DNA of 15,113 nt. Source: Promethearchaeota archaeon (GTDB lineage: Archaea > Asgardarchaeota > Lokiarchaeia > Sigyniarchaeales > SOKP01). Below are positions 2,850 through 12,121 of this stretch, in pieces; the first letter of the stretch is position 1, and the number at the start of each line of letters is the position of its first letter. The notes beneath the pieces are model-generated. The model was not told where the DNA came from. It did not search any database and saw only the letters and a list, made by a program, of their open reading frames with translations. The DNA is taken from the NCBI GenBank assembly GCA_004524535.1, contig SDNY01000089.1, positions 1-15,113 on the forward strand. The letters run 5' to 3'. Both the position numbers and the translations under genes were made by a program.

Positions 2850-3679
2850 ATGGTACAAATTTCAGGCGACTGGGGATTCAGAAATCGCCTCAATAGGATA
2901 ATCAAGCCTAAATCTGGACGATGTGTGATGTTAGCAATAGATCACGGCTATTTTGGAAACGTGCCCGGTCAATTAAAATGTTTTGAAGAGATGTCACCCC
3001 TATTTAAGTATGCCGATGCCTTGATGTTAACACGGGGAATGTTGAGAAATTGTGTCCCCTCAGAGGTTGAGGCCCCTATAGTATTAAGAGTCTCAGCAGG
3101 AGCAAGTATGTTAAAAGAACTTTCTAATGAGGAAATCAATGTAGCTGTGGATGATGCCATTAGATTAAATGTTTCAGCAATAACATGCTCAATATTTGTT
3201 GGAGGAGAATATGAAAAACAATCTCTCATGAACTTATCGAAACTAGTAAATTGGGGTCAGCAATATGGCATTCCAACGTTAGCCGTGACAGCGGTAGGGC
3301 GTGAAATGGTGAGGGATGCTCGTTATTTAGGTATGGCAAGTAGAATGGCTGCTGAAATGGGAGCAACTTTCGTGAAAACATATTATTGCGAGAATTTTGA
3401 GGAAGTTACAAGTATCTGTCCTGCGCCAATTGTTATTGCTGGCGGTAAAAAAATTCCTGAAAAAGACGCTTTACAAATGGCGAAAAATGCCGTCGATAAA
3501 GGTGCTGTCGGCGTAGACTATAGCTATTTAGCTTAGTTATAGGCGCAAATATGGGAAGAAATATCTTTCAATCTGATAGCCCGATTGGCATGATAAAAGC
3601 TGTACGAAGAATAGTCCATGAGAATGTCTCGGCTGATGAAGCATTCGAAATTTACAAGAATGGTCCAAAAGGATTATAA
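2850..3679 (+). CDS. lsrF: LsrF/DhnA-family class I aldolase/thiolase, split by a 32-nt intron: join(2850..3516,3549..3679), 265 aa
   Basis: Motifs [26 protein letters not shown]. The track ORF stops at TAG 3534-3536, but the missing C-terminus [24 protein letters not shown]...GPKGL* follows at 3551-3679 in another frame. SD-like GAGGT at 2838-2842. Confidence 0.88.
3517..3548 (+). other. Putative archaeal BHB-type mRNA intron (32 nt)
   Basis: 4-bp central helix GCGU(3511-14)/GCGC(3543-46); 3-nt bulges AGA(3515-17) and AAA(3547-49); 9-bp intron stem CUAUAGCUA(3518-26)/UAGUUAUAG(3534-42) with a 7-nt loop. Cleavage after the 2nd base of each bulge gives GTA G|AT ATG = V-D-M. Confidence 0.85.
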
Positions 3680-3702
3680 TTTTTTTTTTCTATTTTTTTT
3701 TA
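3680..3702 (+). terminator. T-rich archaeal-type terminator after the spliced lsrF
   Basis: Long oligo-T runs directly after TAA 3679, consistent with 3679 being the real gene end. Confidence 0.5.
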
Positions 3703-3814
3703 TTATTATTATAATTTTCTTTTAAATATGATTTTCAAAGAATTTAATTTAATTACAAAAATTTCTGCTCTCCTTCTTTATAAATATATATGAAGTTATT
3801 AAATATATATTACA

Positions 3815-4948
3815 ATGGAAAAAAATAAATATTCAGCAACAAAATTAATAGAAGATTTAAGGAGAGAAATTTTTAAAATAATTCCAACTAGTTTTTTCAT
3901 TAATAATCTTAAAGTAAAAATGATTCGAAATGGAATTCTATCTGATAAAAAGTTAAGCCTTATCCTATGTGGTTATGAAGGTCGCCTTAAAAGGATTAAA
4001 AGGAATATTAGAGCTAATCCAGATTTTAAAATAGCTCAAGATGAATTAATGGATTGGAGCAATAGTATTAATGATTACTTCGGTTCTAAGAGTGACAAGA
4101 TAATTAATTTTATTAAGCAATATCGAGAATTAAACGAAAATTTGCCGATATCCAGAAAAAAAGGATTAAAAGTTTTAAATTATCATCCTAAATTAAAATT
4201 AGATTTTTTTGAAATAATTAATACAAAAGAAAAAGCATATTGGCTAGGACTAATATGGGCAGAAATATACCTAGGGAAAAGAGGTGAAATAAGCCTTGAA
4301 TTAAATAATAAAGATGAAATTCTAATAGATAGATATTGTAAAACCTTAGGTTTAAACCCAAAATATAAAAAATACCAAGTAAAAATGAGAAAAAAAAGTC
4401 CAAGAACATATGTTAGAATTAGATTTAAAAGCAGTAAAATTCAAAAGGATCTATACAAATTAGGGTATATAAAAAGCAGTAAAAAGTCTACAATATTTCC
4501 TAAATTAGATATTCGAGAATTAGATTTAGCGTTTCTACTTGGATTTTTCGATGGTGACGGAAAGGAAGGTACAAATACACTTCATATAGGTAGTAGGAAA
4601 ATTCTTGAACACATTAAGGAAAAATTTAATGTTCCTCATGAAATTCTGCCTGATAAGAAAGGATATTATTACTTTAGTCTAGGTGGAAAATTATTTAATG
4701 AAATGATGACAAATTATAGAAATAGCCTAGAAAGAAAAAGAAGATTCTTTAGAGTTCCAATTAAAGAAAAATTAAAAGAACTAATCTCAAGAGAAAAACT
4801 TAGAGAATTAGTATGGAAATTAACCCTCAAGGAAATAGCTGAAAGATATAATGCTTACCCAAGAGCCATTTCTGAATTATGTATTGAGTGGGGGATAAAA
4901 AGACCTCCTACTCATTATTGGCATCAAAATTTAAGTGAGCAAAAATAG
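3815..4948 (+). CDS. Free-standing double-motif LAGLIDADG homing-endonuclease-like protein with C-terminal HTH
   Basis: Motif 1 AYWLGLIWAEI (degenerate), motif 2 AFLLGFFDGDG; very Lys/Arg-rich; HTH-like tail LTLKEIAERYNAYPRAISELCIEWGIKRP. No intein splice residues or host-protein fusion seen. Confidence 0.85.
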   Translation: MEKNKYSATKLIEDLRREIFKIIPTSFFINNLKVKMIRNGILSDKKLSLILCGYEGRLKRIKRNIRANPDFKIAQDELMDWSNSINDYFGSKSDKIINFIKQYRELNENLPISRKKGLKVLNYHPKLKLDFFEIINTKEKAYWLGLIWAEIYLGKRGEISLELNNKDEILIDRYCKTLGLNPKYKKYQVKMRKKSPRTYVRIRFKSSKIQKDLYKLGYIKSSKKSTIFPKLDIRELDLAFLLGFFDGDGKEGTNTLHIGSRKILEHIKEKFNVPHEILPDKKGYYYFSLGGKLFNEMMTNYRNSLERKRRFFRVPIKEKLKELISREKLRELVWKLTLKEIAERYNAYPRAISELCIEWGIKRPPTHYWHQNLSEQK

Positions 4949-4992
4949 AATAATAAGTAAGGTTATTAACTTAATTAATATTTATGATTAGC

Positions 4993-5421
4993 TTACTTTT
5001 CAGATTCATTCCAATTTTTATATACAGATTTATGCTCATATTTTAAATAATGAATGATATCCAATATTCCACCAATAAATGACAATATACCAATTATAAT
5101 CCATATACTATCAGAAGTAAAGTAAAACAAGATTATGTATAAAAAATTGTAGAAAATCCCTATGAACCAAGGATTAAAAGAACCCATATATCTACCATAA
5201 GGTCGTATCCCTATATAAGAATAATAAATAGTTGTTCCATATACAAAGTAGAACATTATAATTACAATTAAGAAATACAGAGAATTTGACATTACGATAT
5301 AGTAGTAACCCCGAATTGTTATTAAAACTAACACTATTAGAAATAGAACACAAATAATATATGAAAATATTGTATTCCTTTCCTTTAAATCTCTTAATCT
5401 GATTGGTTTATTGTTTTTCAT
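4993..5421 (-). CDS. Hypothetical membrane protein (about 4 TM segments)
   Basis: 142-aa ORF with ATG start and four hydrophobic, Tyr/Ile-rich stretches; fills the gap convergent with the LAGLIDADG gene; no family recognised. Confidence 0.6.
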   Translation of the reverse strand: MKNNKPIRLRDLKERNTIFSYIICVLFLIVLVLITIRGYYYIVMSNSLYFLIVIIMFYFVYGTTIYYSYIGIRPYGRYMGSFNPWFIGIFYNFLYIILFYFTSDSIWIIIGILSFIGGILDIIHYLKYEHKSVYKNWNESEK

Positions 5422-5520
5422 TGAAAGTGGATTTTTAATTATGAAAAATTAATTCAAGAAAATTATTATTCTTATTTTTTTAATAAAATTATGTTTTTCA
5501 GAGTAATTATTGATTGGTAT

Positions 5521-5637
5521 ATTTTTCAATCAGATAAACCAATTGGAATGATTAAAGCTGTTAGAGCAATTGTGCATGAAAATGCTTCGGTGGATGAAGC
5601 TTACGAAATATATCAGAGTGGTCCAGTAGGATTGTGA
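5521..5637 (+). pseudogene. Orphan duplicate of the lsrF 3' end (38 codons + stop)
   Basis: Translates to [38 protein letters not shown], 30/38 aa identical to 3563-3679; similarity to lsrF stops at about 5519. Confidence 0.92.
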
Positions 5638-5682: not shown

Positions 5683-5744
5683 GGTTAATTTAATAAATCT
5701 TAATTTATTTTTTTCTACAATACACATATTAAGAATATATTACA

Positions 5745-6722
5745 ATGGAAATACCTAAGATAAAGAATCTCGAAATTAAAGAAGTTATAAAAGATAATAT
5801 CTTAATAGCGCATCAGAATAAGGTGCCTAGTGATTTTTCTTGCTGTGATGGATTAATCATTTTACCTAGAAAAGGGCGAAATTCTGAGACTGTTATTCTT
5901 GATTTGAATATTCAACCTAAATATTCAATAGAACTCTATAAGGATATTGGTCCTATTTTAAATTATGTCTGTACTCATGGGCACTTGGATCACATGGCTC
6001 ATGTATATGGATGGGAAGCATTAGAGGCAACTATCCACGCACCTAATCCTGAAGCAAATTATCTACTTGATTTAAAAAATTTTCATAAAGATAATTTCGA
6101 TGCGAGAGTGAGTTTTAGCGATGTTAAAAAATTTGCTGAATTAAATGAATATTTTACCTGCAATAATGTGGAAGCATTTGAACCAGGAGATACATTAAAA
6201 TTTGAAAATTTGATTATAGAAACGATTCCATTTCCGGGACATGGCAATGGGCATGTTGGCCTTTATATTCCTTCCGAAAAAGTATTACATATAAGTTGTA
6301 TGGGATTTGACCAACCTGAACCGGGAATCGATGGATTTGGTCCATGGTATGGTTTTCAAGATTGTTCAATTGAACAATATTTAGAGGATATTGATAAAGC
6401 AGAGAAACTTTTCCTTGAAAAAGCTAAATTTTTAACTTCTAGTCATGGCTACATTGTGAAAAATCCAGATAAAACACCCTTTGAATATATGAGGAGAAAA
6501 TTAAAAGAACGGCAAAACTTAGTCAATATGGCAGCAATAAAGTCAGAATTAAGTTTAAATTTAGAGGAAAGTGTAAATCTCTTATTAGAACAAGACTTAA
6601 TTTTTCAAAAAAAGAAAATGAAATCCTTTCTTAAGAAGATATATACTTTTTGGGAATATTGGATAATTAAAAAGCATCTTCAACATACTTATAAAACCTT
6701 AGAAATAGAAGAACAAGATTAA
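5745..6722 (+). CDS. Metallo-beta-lactamase-fold hydrolase
   Basis: HxHxDH motif (THGHLDHM), PGHGNGH and SSHG; 325 aa. Confidence 0.9.
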   Translation: MEIPKIKNLEIKEVIKDNILIAHQNKVPSDFSCCDGLIILPRKGRNSETVILDLNIQPKYSIELYKDIGPILNYVCTHGHLDHMAHVYGWEALEATIHAPNPEANYLLDLKNFHKDNFDARVSFSDVKKFAELNEYFTCNNVEAFEPGDTLKFENLIIETIPFPGHGNGHVGLYIPSEKVLHISCMGFDQPEPGIDGFGPWYGFQDCSIEQYLEDIDKAEKLFLEKAKFLTSSHGYIVKNPDKTPFEYMRRKLKERQNLVNMAAIKSELSLNLEESVNLLLEQDLIFQKKKMKSFLKKIYTFWEYWIIKKHLQHTYKTLEIEEQD

Positions 6723-6847: not shown

Positions 6848-8572
6848 TCATTATCTTTCTATAAATCTTTAATTTATGATACTATTGAGATTTATATATA
6901 TTTATTTCTTAAATATAGAAAAAGCTGTTTATTATGGAGAAATTGAATAGATATAATCTTAATAAAATAAAAGAATTAGTTGAGGATTTGAGTATAAGGA
7001 AATCCGGAATAAAAGGTGTAATTTTAAATCCGAAAAATGAAGAAGAATTCAAAAATTTAAAAAATATTTCCGGTCAAATTCCAAGCAAAACTAAGATTAA
7101 AGTAAAATGTGGTGTTCCAGAACATCCGGCGTGGATAACAACAGCAGATCGCTTGCAACAAGGACATTGGTGTAAGGTTTGTGCGTATAATATTTTTACA
7201 TTTGAAAAAGCAAAAAAATTAGTTAAAAAACTTGGTCTCAAAAAATATGGAATTGAAGGACAAATAATTAAACCAGAAAATTCTTTAGAATTCATTAAAT
7301 TAACTGGAACATATCAACCTAGTTATGTACCATTGTTAGTCTCTTGCGGAATTTCAAATCACCAAAATTGGATCACAAATGGGAGAGCTTTATCTAGAGG
7401 TAATTGGTGTAGAGAATGTTATATAGAAAGTATGAAATTAACATTTAATGATATTAAGAATATAGTCAAGGATGCAGGTCGTAATAAAATTGGTAAAGAT
7501 GGTATTTTGCTTGAACCTATTAATCTGCAAGATTTTGAAAAACTAAAGATAGCTCCTAGTAAAATCCCTTTAAAGATTAAATGTGGAGTTCCAGAACATC
7601 CAGAATGGATTACTGATGCTTCCCATTTAATAAGAGGTAATTGGTGCAAATTTTGTGCTCAAAATATTTTTACTTATAAATCTATAAAGAATTTAGTAAA
7701 AGATGTTGGATTAAAAAAGTCTGGTGTAAAAGGACATCTTATTAAACCAAGATAGAATTTAAAAAAATAAATAAAAATATTAAACCTAGTGAAATTCAAT
7801 TATTAGTTAAATGTGGAATTGTGGATCATGGAACTTGGAATACAAATGCGCATCGATTACAACAAGGATATTGGTGTTCAGTTTGTTCTCAAGGTGAAAA
7901 TGAACAGATATGTCGTTGGTATTTTGAACAAATTTTTAATAAATCCTTTCCAAAAACTCAATTAAGTAAGGTAATTAGAATAGTAAATGAAAAAATGTAT
8001 AATGAAACAGAACTAGATATATTAAACAGATTAATTAAATATGGTCATTTTGATGGATATGCTGAATTAAAATTAAATAGAAAATCAATAAAATTAGCTT
8101 TTGAATATAATGGCCCTCAACATTATAGATTTCCCAATCATGTACATAAAACCAAGGAGAAATTCAATTATCAAAGATTTCTTGATCAAATGAAGCAAAA
8201 AGTATGTGATGCAGAAGAAAATAAAATAGTTCTAATAGTATTCCCGTTTTTTATTGACGAAAGGATGGATAATCCAGAAATTATTCAAAATTACATAGTA
8301 AAGGAATTCAATATTAAAACCGGTATCGATTTAGTCGATTTACCAAAATTTAATCATAAAACATACGTTTTTGGTCAATATAAGCTAGATAAATATCTCA
8401 AATGATAAATTTCTAAAAAATATTAATTGAATTTAGATAATTTTCATCCCATTTCAAAATCAATTATTACTTTTAATGAATTATCAGCATCACATACAGT
8501 ATTGAATGCTTCTTGTACTTTCTCAATTGAATAGCGATGGGATATTAAATTAACAATAGATAATTTCTTGGA
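6848..8572. mobile_element. Putative endonuclease cassette 2: replacement dehydrogenase 3' end + Zn-ribbon/Vsr-like nuclease gene
   Basis: Bounded by two diverged copies of the dehydrogenase 3' end (8444-8572 and 6719-6847), both starting with TCCAAGAAATT on the minus strand. The right boundary is uncertain. Confidence 0.62.
6934..8405 (+). pseudogene. Zn-ribbon-repeat protein with C-terminal Vsr/DUF559-like PD-(D/E)XK endonuclease domain, frameshifted near 7753
   Basis: Track ORFs 6934-7755 and 7821-8405 are one gene: four CGxxxHxxW...GxWCxxC repeats, then E(QICR)...FDGY...LAFEYNGPQHY...DQMKQKVC...LIVFPF. The second frame is open from 7755 (EFKKINKNIKPSEIQLLVKCG). Confidence 0.8.
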
Positions 8573-9493
8573 ACTAATGATACTATAAGCGTCATCTAAA
8601 TCTTGAGGGGCCGCACCATATGAAGTCATAATTGTGATCTCATTTCTCCAATAGTCGTTTATAGGTACTTCAAGGTTAATTCCGGGTTTGGGAACTGCAA
8701 AAAAGATGATTGTACTACCAGGACCAGCACAATCTAAAGCTTGCCTTGCTGCCGATAAAGCACCAGTGCACACAATTACAACATCAGGGGATCTTCCCTC
8801 GTTATTTTTTTTTACTTCTGAGATACTTTCATCATTTGCGTGAATTGCCTCATCAGCACCAAACTGTTTTGCTTTTTCTAATCGATAGTCGCTTATATCT
8901 GTAGTGATAACTTTTTCTACACCTTTAGCTTTTGCCAGCATAAGATGCAATAATCCCGAGACTCCACTACCTAGTATCAAGAGGGTTTGCCCTTTTTTGA
9001 TATTGGCTAATCTTTGAGCACGACATACACACCCCAAAGGTTCAATAAACACACCCTCTTCATATGAAACATCATCATCAAGAATATATACTCCTTTTTT
9101 TTCTATATTAACTGTTGGAACTCTAAGATATTCAGCAAAGCCACCAGGATCGAAATTTGTATTATGAAGCAAATTGCAAGCGGTATGATGCCCTAGTTCA
9201 CAGTAATGACAATCAAAACAAGGAACATGATGTGATACAAAGACTCGGTCTCCAACTTTAAAATCTTTTACTCCTTCCCCGATCTCAACAATATCACCAG
9301 CAATTTCATGCCCCAAAATAAGATTATCAACGCCGAGTTTTTTCATTTTTGCTAATCGATAATACTCCAAAATATCGGATCCACAGATTCCAGATTTCTT
9401 CACTTTTACTAAGAGTTCTCCAGGACCAATTTTAGGTCTGGGTATCTCATCAAGTCTAATATCGTTGTTATTATAATATCTTGCGATTTTCAT
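8444..9493 (-). CDS. Zn-dependent medium-chain alcohol/polyol dehydrogenase (L-iditol/threonine dehydrogenase-like)
   Basis: GICGSD, LGHEIAG, structural Zn site CFDCHYC-x7-C, EPLGC and Rossmann GSGVSG. Confidence 0.93.
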   Translation of the reverse strand: MKIARYYNNNDIRLDEIPRPKIGPGELLVKVKKSGICGSDILEYYRLAKMKKLGVDNLILGHEIAGDIVEIGEGVKDFKVGDRVFVSHHVPCFDCHYCELGHHTACNLLHNTNFDPGGFAEYLRVPTVNIEKKGVYILDDDVSYEEGVFIEPLGCVCRAQRLANIKKGQTLLILGSGVSGLLHLMLAKAKGVEKVITTDISDYRLEKAKQFGADEAIHANDESISEVKKNNEGRSPDVVIVCTGALSAARQALDCAGPGSTIIFFAVPKPGINLEVPINDYWRNEITIMTSYGAAPQDLDDAYSIISSKKLSIVNLISHRYSIEKVQEAFNTVCDADNSLKVIIDFEMG

Positions 9494-11908: not shown

Positions 11909-12121
11909 TCTCTTACGAATTAAGTTTGATTTTTTTTAAAAACCTTGTAAGCTTGCCTTCTATGAAGAGATAGATATATGTTTGAATCCGATATATTTTT
12001 ATTTTTTGTTTTATTTTCCAATTTAATATTTTATTTACAAAAAACTTTAACAATAACAGGTTTAAATTTTGTTTAAGGTAGACCTAATATTGTTTAATAA
12101 TAAAAAAATTTAACTAAAAAA

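Follow-up and report, generated by a model that had tools for sequence, protein, structure and literature searches.

Why should a gene of an archaeon be interrupted by 32 nucleotides (nt) that shift its frame, be completed by a divergent copy of its own 3' end, and be followed by an endonuclease gene and then by a second 3' end? This question is raised by the lsrF locus on contig SDNY01000089.1 of a Promethearchaeota archaeon. The window analysed here is the entire contig of 15,113 bp, taken from a 3.66-Mb genome (30% G+C) that is called G000; other G-numbers denote the genomes of relatives, and L-numbers the loci compared. There is little doubt that the 32-nt insert is an archaeal mini-intron with a relaxed bulge-helix-bulge (BHB) motif, predicted to be spliced from the lsrF messenger RNA (mRNA). 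The tract from 3507 to 5520, in which it lies, is very probably a nuclease-driven mobile unit. Together, the intron and its cassette would form a collaborative homing unit, a reading that is reasonably probable and for which we infer splicing, the cut site and immunity from sequence comparison.

The 32-nt insert and its predicted splicing

The lsrF gene (2850-3680, + strand) is split by 32 nt at 3517-3548. Exon 1 (2850-3516, + strand) is native to about position 3506. Its open reading frame (ORF) matches the NCBIfam equivalog NF006081 with 327.9 bits against a cut-off of 297, over profile positions 32-251 of 291, and the product is a 3-hydroxy-5-phosphonooxypentane-2,4-dione thiolase with the DeoC/LacD aldolase fold (Pfam PF01791). 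This ORF (2850-3536) holds the first 223 LsrF codons, and the stop codon of that frame is located at 3534-3536. The last 42 codons, MGRNIFQS...GL, continue from 3551 in a different frame. Deleting 3517-3548 fuses both frames and gives GVD/MGRN as in the intron-less orthologues. An initial annotation, made from the letters of this DNA, had proposed that the intron leaves the protein unchanged, and the restored junction agrees with this.

The minimum-energy fold of the insert and its borders consists of a 4-bp helix (3511-3514/3543-3546), a 3-nt bulge on the 3' side of this helix (3515-3517), and an inner 9-bp helix (3518-3526/3534-3542) closed by a 7-nt loop (3527-3533). When the cuts are set two bases inside the bulge and two beyond the 4-bp helix, they fall at 3516/3517 and 3548/3549 and restore the frame, in agreement with the splice sites that had been proposed initially. 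The cut positions within the bulge are assigned after the case of transfer RNA (tRNA), at 37/38. The outer helix between the two exons cannot form, as the bases before 3511 and after 3549 are unpairable (read from the sequence). The structure thus departs from the canonical hBHBh' form and is a relaxed HBh' motif (3511-3546, + strand), with the 3' site in an unpaired stretch.

The same helix-bulge geometry is found in all 12 intron-bearing alleles. For the single sequence, the fold energy is not significant (z -1.45). In the alignment of the 12 alleles, 95.5% of the cells are paired and 7 of the 13 pairs are changed on both sides; none of 500 shuffles was as good, and slid partners pair in 27-42%. 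Because this comparison decides where the energy of one fold is unremarkable, the structure of the insert can be considered non-random.

Behind the insert, exon 2 shows 4.1 amino-acid differences in 39 among the carriers, compared to 4.3 among the intron-less alleles. The ratio of synonymous to non-synonymous codon differences is 888:439 in carriers and 971:420 in intron-less alleles, and no stop codon is present in exon 2 of any of the 12 intron-bearing alleles. Exon 2 is therefore equally conserved behind a frame-shifting insert, which indicates that the insert is removed from, or skipped in, the message.

A candidate enzyme is available in the host. The genome encodes two EndA subunits of 201 amino acids (aa) each, one resembling the catalytic and the other the structural half of fused forms, and this pair would fit an (alpha-beta)2 enzyme. 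Asgard archaea are reported to have an (alpha-beta)2 splicing endonuclease in which the L1 loop is tied to relaxed motifs, according to the passages of PMC5829648 that concern them; the broad-specificity loop is known from this literature. Among the sequencing runs listed for this DNA, none was an RNA run.

The foreign tract and its empty alleles

The closest relative of the window lsrF is G008, with 98% protein identity over exon 1, which has neither the insert nor the cassette. The gene body is 95% identical to that of G008 (29 of 575 compared positions differ). Beyond +30 in exon 2, 27 of 92 positions differ. This replacement exon 2 (exon 2', 3549-3680, + strand, with the stop codon at 3678-3680) arrived with the cassette. 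It is followed by a T-rich spacer (3681-3814, + strand), a free-standing 377-aa ORF (3815-4948, + strand), a 142-aa ORF on the opposite strand (4993-5421, - strand) and a second lsrF 3' end. The latter, here called the orphan (5521-5637, + strand), is the displaced native 3' end and runs from the IFQ codons to a stop codon at 5635-5637. From 5521 onwards, it is 95.7% identical over 162 nt to the native 3' end of G008 and the DNA that follows it. Position 5521 is the start of the ATT codon of N/IFQ and is equivalent to 3563, 14 nt past the 3' splice site. The orphan had initially been placed at the equivalent of about 3561-3563, 12-14 nt past that site, and the alignment agrees with this placement.

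The empty form of the locus was found in contigs from three other sediment metagenomes of three studies (runs X2, X3 and X4). These contigs follow the window up to 3502 or 3506, continue with 24-28 letters reading an uninterrupted ...GVDMGRN, and then join exactly at 5521. One of them is nearly identical upstream, with 3 differences in 174 nt. The filled form is also present elsewhere, in a 1150-nt contig of 94% identity from the metagenome of another study. Since the empty contigs bypass exactly this tract, the window from 3507 to 5520 (+ strand) is foreign DNA, with 2014 nt standing in place of 24 native nt. It comprises 10 nt of exon 1, the intron, the replacement exon 2, the LAGLIDADG gene and the 142-aa cargo ORF. 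The replaced 24 nt span from 10 nt before to 14 nt after the intron site and are roughly centred on it. The nuclease gene starts 267 nt downstream of the intron, behind a complete exon.

The cargo ORF encodes a hydrophobic, predicted small membrane protein, for which only a weak DUF2070 match below the cut-off was obtained. Neither this ORF nor the two spacers have tblastn relatives in the genome or in any locus compared. It is not present in the other cassettes; L174 has a different cargo, of about 2.4 kb.

The initial annotation also considered the arrangement as a stage before or after a BHB intron containing the nuclease gene. No sign of the cassette having been one large intron was seen at the lsrF cassettes. 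In G052, which has the most complete orphan, the bases ahead of the orphan cannot pair with the 5' helix strand (by eye) and cannot form the 3' half of the motif. The whole cassette as a single large BHB intron was thus rejected, and the proposed intermediate stage is unsupported.

A further observation concerns the flanks of the nuclease gene. An identical stretch of 17 bases (ATATATTACAATGGAAA), start codon included, is found at 3805-3821 and at 5735-5751, where it precedes and opens the nuclease ORF and the native metallo-beta-lactamase-fold gene alike. By a rough estimate (about 1e-5), such a repeat in two 130-nt stretches is beyond chance. It may be a trace of the first assembly of the cassette.

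The LAGLIDADG nuclease

The 377-aa ORF (P0003) is a two-motif LAGLIDADG homing-endonuclease-like gene with a helix-turn-helix-like tail at its C-terminus. It matches PHROG 4645, annotated as "endonuclease", with E 1.6e-28, and its homologues at 32-35% identity pass the cut-off of Pfam LAGLIDADG_3 (PF14528) with 25-39 bits. A profile built from 20 homologues finds solved LAGLIDADG enzymes with values from 4.6e-6 to 8.6e-3, namely PDB 2dch_X (4.6e-6), the I-DmoI/I-CreI chimera (2.6e-5), and also I-HjeMI and I-AniI. The two motifs, YWLGLIWAE and LLGFFDGDG, each have an acidic residue and are kept in the five genome-borne, lsrF-linked copies aligned as well as in the 20-sequence alignment. The identity that the initial annotation had given to 3815-4948 is supported by these matches. 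An Atlas model of P0003 has only LAGLIDADG_3 clusters as neighbours, at a TM of about 0.5, which can serve as a lead only.

Relatives of the nuclease are found in 30 of 60 genomes of the family, in varied contexts and with up to five matches per genome. The nuclease family is expanded in Asgard genomes (loci L028-L055 and L153-L163), with records from Helarchaeota, Thorarchaeota and Atabeyarchaeia too. Some relatives have long N-terminal extensions, in ORFs of 582-1036 aa whose sole Pfam match above cut-off is LAGLIDADG_3. A second paralogue in the genome itself, L004 (G000:C26:41675-42748), is 38% identical; it is not located beside lsrF, shows no duplicated gene end, and adjoins a DNA adenine methyltransferase-like ORF (by eye, from a DPPY motif) and a membrane protein gene.

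Distribution and spread of the intron

In the family survey (Promethearchaeia), 134 genomes were searched and 113 were found to have an orthologue. The intron site could be read in 110 alleles. G140, G053 and G103, with partial matches short of the site, and G148, whose match ends before it, were left out. An insert at the same site is present in 12 of the 110 alleles, with a length of 32 nt in ten and 30 nt in two.

Homologues of the nuclease, 53-64% identical to P0003, lie just downstream of lsrF in G052, G146, G121 and G116, all of which are intron-bearing. In G116 the nuclease gene is inverted, and the contig ends 95 nt beyond it, so no orphan is on view. A sixth element, L173 (the same as L172), was obtained from a scan of metagenome contigs, in which the best 80 of 164 nuclease relatives were kept; it contains a 32-nt insert, a nuclease gene and an orphan. 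Two other metagenome hits, L171 and L174, end before the intron site. All six lsrF-linked nuclease loci with a readable site thus carry the intron. No close nuclease homologue was seen beside lsrF in the 98 intron-less alleles, 91 of which were read for at least 1300 nt downstream. Such co-occurrence at lsrF loci had been named as a check in the initial annotation. Among the 12 carriers, five have the cassette and six do not, while G081 is unjudgeable, its contig ending 433 nt past the gene. At L204, a nuclease relative lies some 550 nt behind a paralogous aldolase gene that has neither insert nor orphan; this adjacency was taken as chance.

A tree was calculated from the exon-1 body of 107 of the 110 alleles, three loci being too short for the alignment. 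On this tree, the intron needs 11 gains or losses to account for 12 carriers, and the cassette five for five. G137 is like G121 with the cassette taken out, the join falling within a repeat of 80 bp, and G011 stands in the same relation to G052.

When carriers are compared to sisters that are nearly identical, the differences lie mostly near the intron and in exon 2. Compared to its sister G067, G081 has 8 differences in 575 positions of the gene body, and 6 in 41, 5 in 30, 3 in 30 and 12 in 92 around the site. G137 and G127 differ at 15 of 575 positions in the body and at 22 of 92 in exon 2. On the evidence of these alleles, the flank pattern is one of repeated gene conversion from foreign donors, and the intron is spreading horizontally into intron-less alleles.

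Cut site and proposed mechanism

The positions at which the orphans begin give an indication of where the nuclease may cut. The orphan starts at +14 past the intron site in the window, at about +48 in L173 and at about +65 in G146 and G121, so that an intron close to the breakpoint recurs in four other cassettes when G052 is included. The orphan of G052 (L151, just past the nuclease stop codon) begins at or before the intron site. A copy of the final dozen exon 1 bases is still recognisable in it (an equal match is reached by 4 of 2000 shuffles), and it bears what looks like a scar: a 3-nt insertion exactly at the intron site, substitutions, and a Gly-to-Glu change in GRN. In carriers, two half-sites lie 32 bp apart, and with the insert removed, the junction would resemble an ordinary intron-less site. 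A LAGLIDADG target of some 22 bp with the intron site at its centre would agree with these pointers but is not proven by them. A target extending across the site, with immunity conferred by the intron, is slightly favoured.

The following sequence of events is proposed for the collaborative homing unit. On the RNA level, the tRNA-splicing endonuclease would excise the 32 nt and an RNA ligase would join the exons, restoring the active-site motif GVDMGRN. On the DNA level, the intron would be the left end of a mobile unit that further consists of the exon 2 copy, the free-standing LAGLIDADG gene and, here, the cargo ORF. The nuclease would make a double-strand break in an intron-less lsrF at or very near the insertion site, in the GVD/MGRN codons, and the break would be repaired from a cassette-bearing allele. 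Should the right end pair with the orphan copy, repair would copy in the complete unit and leave the exon 2 of the recipient as the new orphan. Should it pair with the replacement exon 2 instead, no more than the intron and its flanks would be copied. The carrier itself would remain uncut, the intron parting the halves of the target by 32 bp while the protein stays the same.

Mini-introns at other sites and in other genes

Inserts of the same kind are not confined to this site. They share the geometry of a 4-bp helix, a 3-nt bulge, an inner stem and a 3' site two bases past the helix. Within lsrF, a 30-nt insert after the DHG codons is found in six genomes (G092, G042, G011, G052, G023 and G016), one of 30 or 36 nt after the AGG codons in three (G056, G011 and G010), and a single 30-nt insert at an N-terminal site in G073. 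The one lsrF gene of G011 contains three introns.

The gene rpoA1, encoding RNA polymerase subunit A', has a 30-nt mini-intron at GHFGH/IEL (L166:309-338, G000:C17). It is flanked by contiguous positions of Pfam Rpb1 domain 1, 34-73 before and 74-153 after the insert. In a comparison of 14 genomes (with loci L251-L264), three have the insert, namely G000, G006 and G010, and show compensatory changes in it, and the other 11 lack it. In cdhD, the insert (L168, G000:C8:3057-3086) separates positions 7-135 and 138-227 of the CdhD profile. Further inserts of 29-31 nt with the same geometry are located at L167 (G000:C98:11116-11146) and at G000:C26:5940-5968. The genes for elp3 and for a moxR-like ATPase (LLEAMAE/KQVTIEG) are probably split by mini-introns too. 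A less certain case was observed in cdhA (L169, G000:C100, about 12002-12034). Since mini-introns of this kind exist and vary without a partner nuclease, they form a lineage-wide class; the lsrF intron, too, does not exist for the nuclease only.

A genome-wide scan of G000 combined the motif with ORF continuity, using shifted 3' sites as controls. With loose settings, no excess over the controls was obtained (148 vs 149 and 143; 84 vs 78 and 78; 19 vs 22 and 20). Requiring at least 100 open codons on both sides gave a modest excess (46 vs 29, 34 and 29). Such a motif scan is unreliable for counting, and no figure of introns per genome is supported by it.

Weighing of the explanations

Several observations weigh against collaborative homing of the lsrF intron by this nuclease. 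Half of the 12 carriers (G005, G022, G011, G056, G061 and G137) have no nuclease gene nearby, and in G005, G011, G022 and G061 the query used found no homologue anywhere in the genome. G100 (L061, G100:C28) has an inverted, 28%-identical nuclease relative of 428 aa after an intron-less lsrF, in a 2.8-kb insertion directly past the lsrF stop codon from which the sister genome G095 is free. Mini-introns occur at the three other lsrF sites of relatives (L022-L025, L090, L101, L142, L144, L150 and L151), and no nuclease gene was found beside the rpoA1, cdhD, elp3 and moxR-like inserts. P0003 itself misses the Pfam LAGLIDADG_3 cut-off, with 11.3 bits compared to 22.5 (E 0.43). The genomes compared are relatives and not independent samples. 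The cut could also lie inside exon 2, for instance at the +14 junction, in which case immunity would come from the base differences of the replacement exon and not from the intron. Finally, an intron near a nuclease gene would be co-converted whatever its role, so that six of six also fits plain linkage. Of the collaborative homing proposed initially, the entry in one tract, the mobility and the linkage of intron and nuclease are supported by the comparison; half of the carriers and the other mini-introns, with no nuclease nearby, speak against a special tie between the two.

The intron might be an ordinary lineage-wide one, present by chance in the allele from which the cassette arose, that is co-converted and not protective, with the nuclease spreading the cassette from a target wholly in exon 2 or at the junction. 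This is rather unlikely. It would agree with the occurrence of mini-introns of like geometry, free of any nuclease gene, elsewhere in lsrF and in further genes, with the right junction of the window, 14 nt inside exon 2, with the several bases near this junction at which the replacement exon differs from native alleles, and with the tight linkage to be expected at a distance of 150 nt. However, the replacement exon 2 retains the whole GRNIFQ region, and a target in exon 2 would therefore persist in the carriers. In addition, the scar in G052 coincides exactly with the intron site, no more than 10 nt separate the left end of the foreign tract from the intron, and this site is dispersed much more widely over the tree (11 changes for 12 carriers) than site A (about three clades for six carriers, tree read by eye). 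Improbable is an exchange of intron and exon 2 by ordinary homologous recombination, with the LAGLIDADG gene as an unrelated selfish insertion behind lsrF that has its target elsewhere, or inactive. The nuclease-free half of the carriers, the distant relative beside the intron-less lsrF of G100 and the wide occurrence of the family in many contexts (30 of 60 genomes, up to five matches each) point in this direction, but all six lsrF-linked copies share the architecture beside the intron, five of them with an orphan exon 2 (the G116 contig ends), and they span at least four genera with nucleases only 53-64% identical to that of the window. Their catalytic motifs are both intact in the five genome-borne copies aligned, and the replacement in the window is exact, 24 nt for 2014 nt.

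Two other explanations dispense with splicing. A disabling insertion, such as a repair scar, that leaves lsrF as a pseudogene or with a truncated 228-aa product only, would be in line with the insignificant fold of the single sequence. It is very improbable in view of the constraint on exon 2, which is the same as without the intron and leaves all 12 carriers free of stop codons there, of the compensatory changes that keep the structure, and of the same kind of insert in the essential rpoA1. Hardly credible is translational recoding, in which the ribosome would bypass the 32 nt or shift its frame as in gene 60 of phage T4. A glycine take-off and landing pair can be drawn, as GGCG occurs at 3510 and again 32 nt on at 3542. 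The second GG, which is explained by the pairing of the 4-bp helix, is nevertheless absent in G081, G137, G121 and others. As the supposed landing codon is thus missing from other alleles, bypass and frameshifting were rejected. Moreover, the would-be take-off codon is not followed by a stop codon, and 30-nt inserts with in-frame stop codons exist at the same and at other sites.

Relation to known introns and homing systems

The closest precedent for the insert is found in the cbf5 pre-mRNA of Crenarchaeota (Watanabe 2002, Yoshinari 2006, Yokobori 2009), whose BHB introns are ORF-less and 16-44 bp long, as described in PMC2738675. Like the lsrF intron, they are short, ORF-less, located in a protein-coding gene within a BHB-like motif, and gained or lost among relatives, following the account of cbf5 in that paper. 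The same account considers a heteromeric splicing endonuclease to be needed for the cbf5 motif; it calls the intron too short for encoding a nuclease and, in its part on cbf5, names no partner (PMC2738675). The lsrF case differs in its Asgard host, in the genes concerned (lsrF, rpoA1, cdhD and others), in the polymorphism among very close alleles and in the link to a homing-endonuclease cassette. In the literature searched, introns of the splicing-endonuclease type in archaeal protein-coding genes are reported only for the crenarchaeal cbf5, and no mRNA introns of Asgard archaea, Lokiarchaea or Prometheoarchaeum were found. A 2025 paper on splicing enzymes (PMC12397907) cites just the three cbf5 papers for archaeal mRNA introns, and the main text of a preprint on Asgard tRNA introns (10.64898/2026.10.13.758758) does not mention mRNA, homing or LAGLIDADG.

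LAGLIDADG enzymes are also encoded within BHB introns of archaeal ribosomal RNA (rRNA), as with I-DmoI and the putative homing endonuclease PDB 2dch; these introns involve the same nuclease family, provide the closest solved relatives and use the same RNA splicing system. Unlike in these introns, the lsrF nuclease gene is located outside the intron, and the host gene is protein-coding. ORF-less deletion derivatives of nuclease-encoding rRNA BHB introns are known, as stated in the relevant passages of PMC2738675.

Collaborative homing was described for F-CphI and psbA of cyanophage S-PM2 (Zeng, Bonocora and Shub 2009, as summarised in PMC6083498), where the nuclease targets the insertion site in the allele that lacks the intron, and self-cleavage is blocked by the intron. 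In both cases, following this summary, a free-standing nuclease gene adjoins a gene with an ORF-less intron (PMC6083498). The phage system, according to the same summary, has a self-splicing group I ribozyme, an enzyme of the Endo VII type, a phage host and cleavage demonstrated at the bench. The lsrF system would have a 32-nt BHB intron spliced by proteins, an enzyme of the LAGLIDADG type, a replacement exon and a cellular archaeal gene, and is known from sequence alone.

Intron-less homing of free-standing endonuclease genes has been reported for T4-like phages, including the trans homing of a defunct intron by mobE, as covered in the relevant parts of PMC6083498 and PMC2790892. There, as proposed for lsrF, a nuclease gene between conserved genes cuts the neighbouring gene in genomes without the nuclease, and the flanks are co-converted (from the same part of PMC6083498). 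In contrast to the T4-like case, the lsrF setting is cellular and archaeal, and the host gene stays complete through the duplication of its 3' end. A mobile element in the atp6 gene of Allomyces (fungal mitochondria) has the lsrF architecture of gene, foreign 3' end, nuclease ORF and displaced native 3' end. Unlike in lsrF, the ORF of the Allomyces element is fused in frame to the gene, and no intron is known to be involved. What is new is that a BHB mini-intron, a replacement exon and a free-standing LAGLIDADG gene are combined at one cellular gene of an Asgard archaeon, while collaborative homing itself was already known.

Other features of the window

The spacer between exon 2' and the nuclease gene contains T runs and an A+T-rich, TATA-like stretch ahead of the nuclease gene (read from the sequence); the T runs are predicted to act as a terminator for lsrF. 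Downstream of the orphan lies the metallo-beta-lactamase-fold gene (5745-6722, + strand; Pfam PF00753), the native neighbour of lsrF, which in G121 and G100 is likewise located behind lsrF or the cassette. No Rfam families and no tRNA genes were detected in scans of the window. The remaining contig looks ordinary, with two tandem EamA transporter genes (774-2717), an SCP2 gene (307-705) and a gene for a zinc alcohol dehydrogenase (8444-9493).

Significance

Tentatively, and with somewhat less than even confidence, the mini-introns of Asgard archaea can be regarded as mobile DNA, with a free-standing LAGLIDADG nuclease homing an ORF-less BHB intron of 32 nt, along with a replacement exon, into alleles of a protein-coding gene that lack the intron, and the intron serving as the immunity device. 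If this is true, archaeal BHB introns would have their first trans-acting homing system, and short introns a working route into and among protein-coding genes, including a gene of the RNA polymerase, in the prokaryotes closest to eukaryotes. The lsrF locus offers a candidate mechanism for the gain of ORF-less BHB introns, and natural empty, intron-only and full lsrF alleles exist for comparison. Gene callers will split or truncate genes of this kind, and Asgard proteomes and completeness estimates may be affected. An Asgard lineage with mini-introns in several core genes bears on the debates about the origin of introns, and also on the uncoupling of transcription from translation before eukaryotes arose. 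The travel of the lsrF intron and its nuclease gene between species may exemplify the way in which very small introns spread among the closest relatives of eukaryotes.

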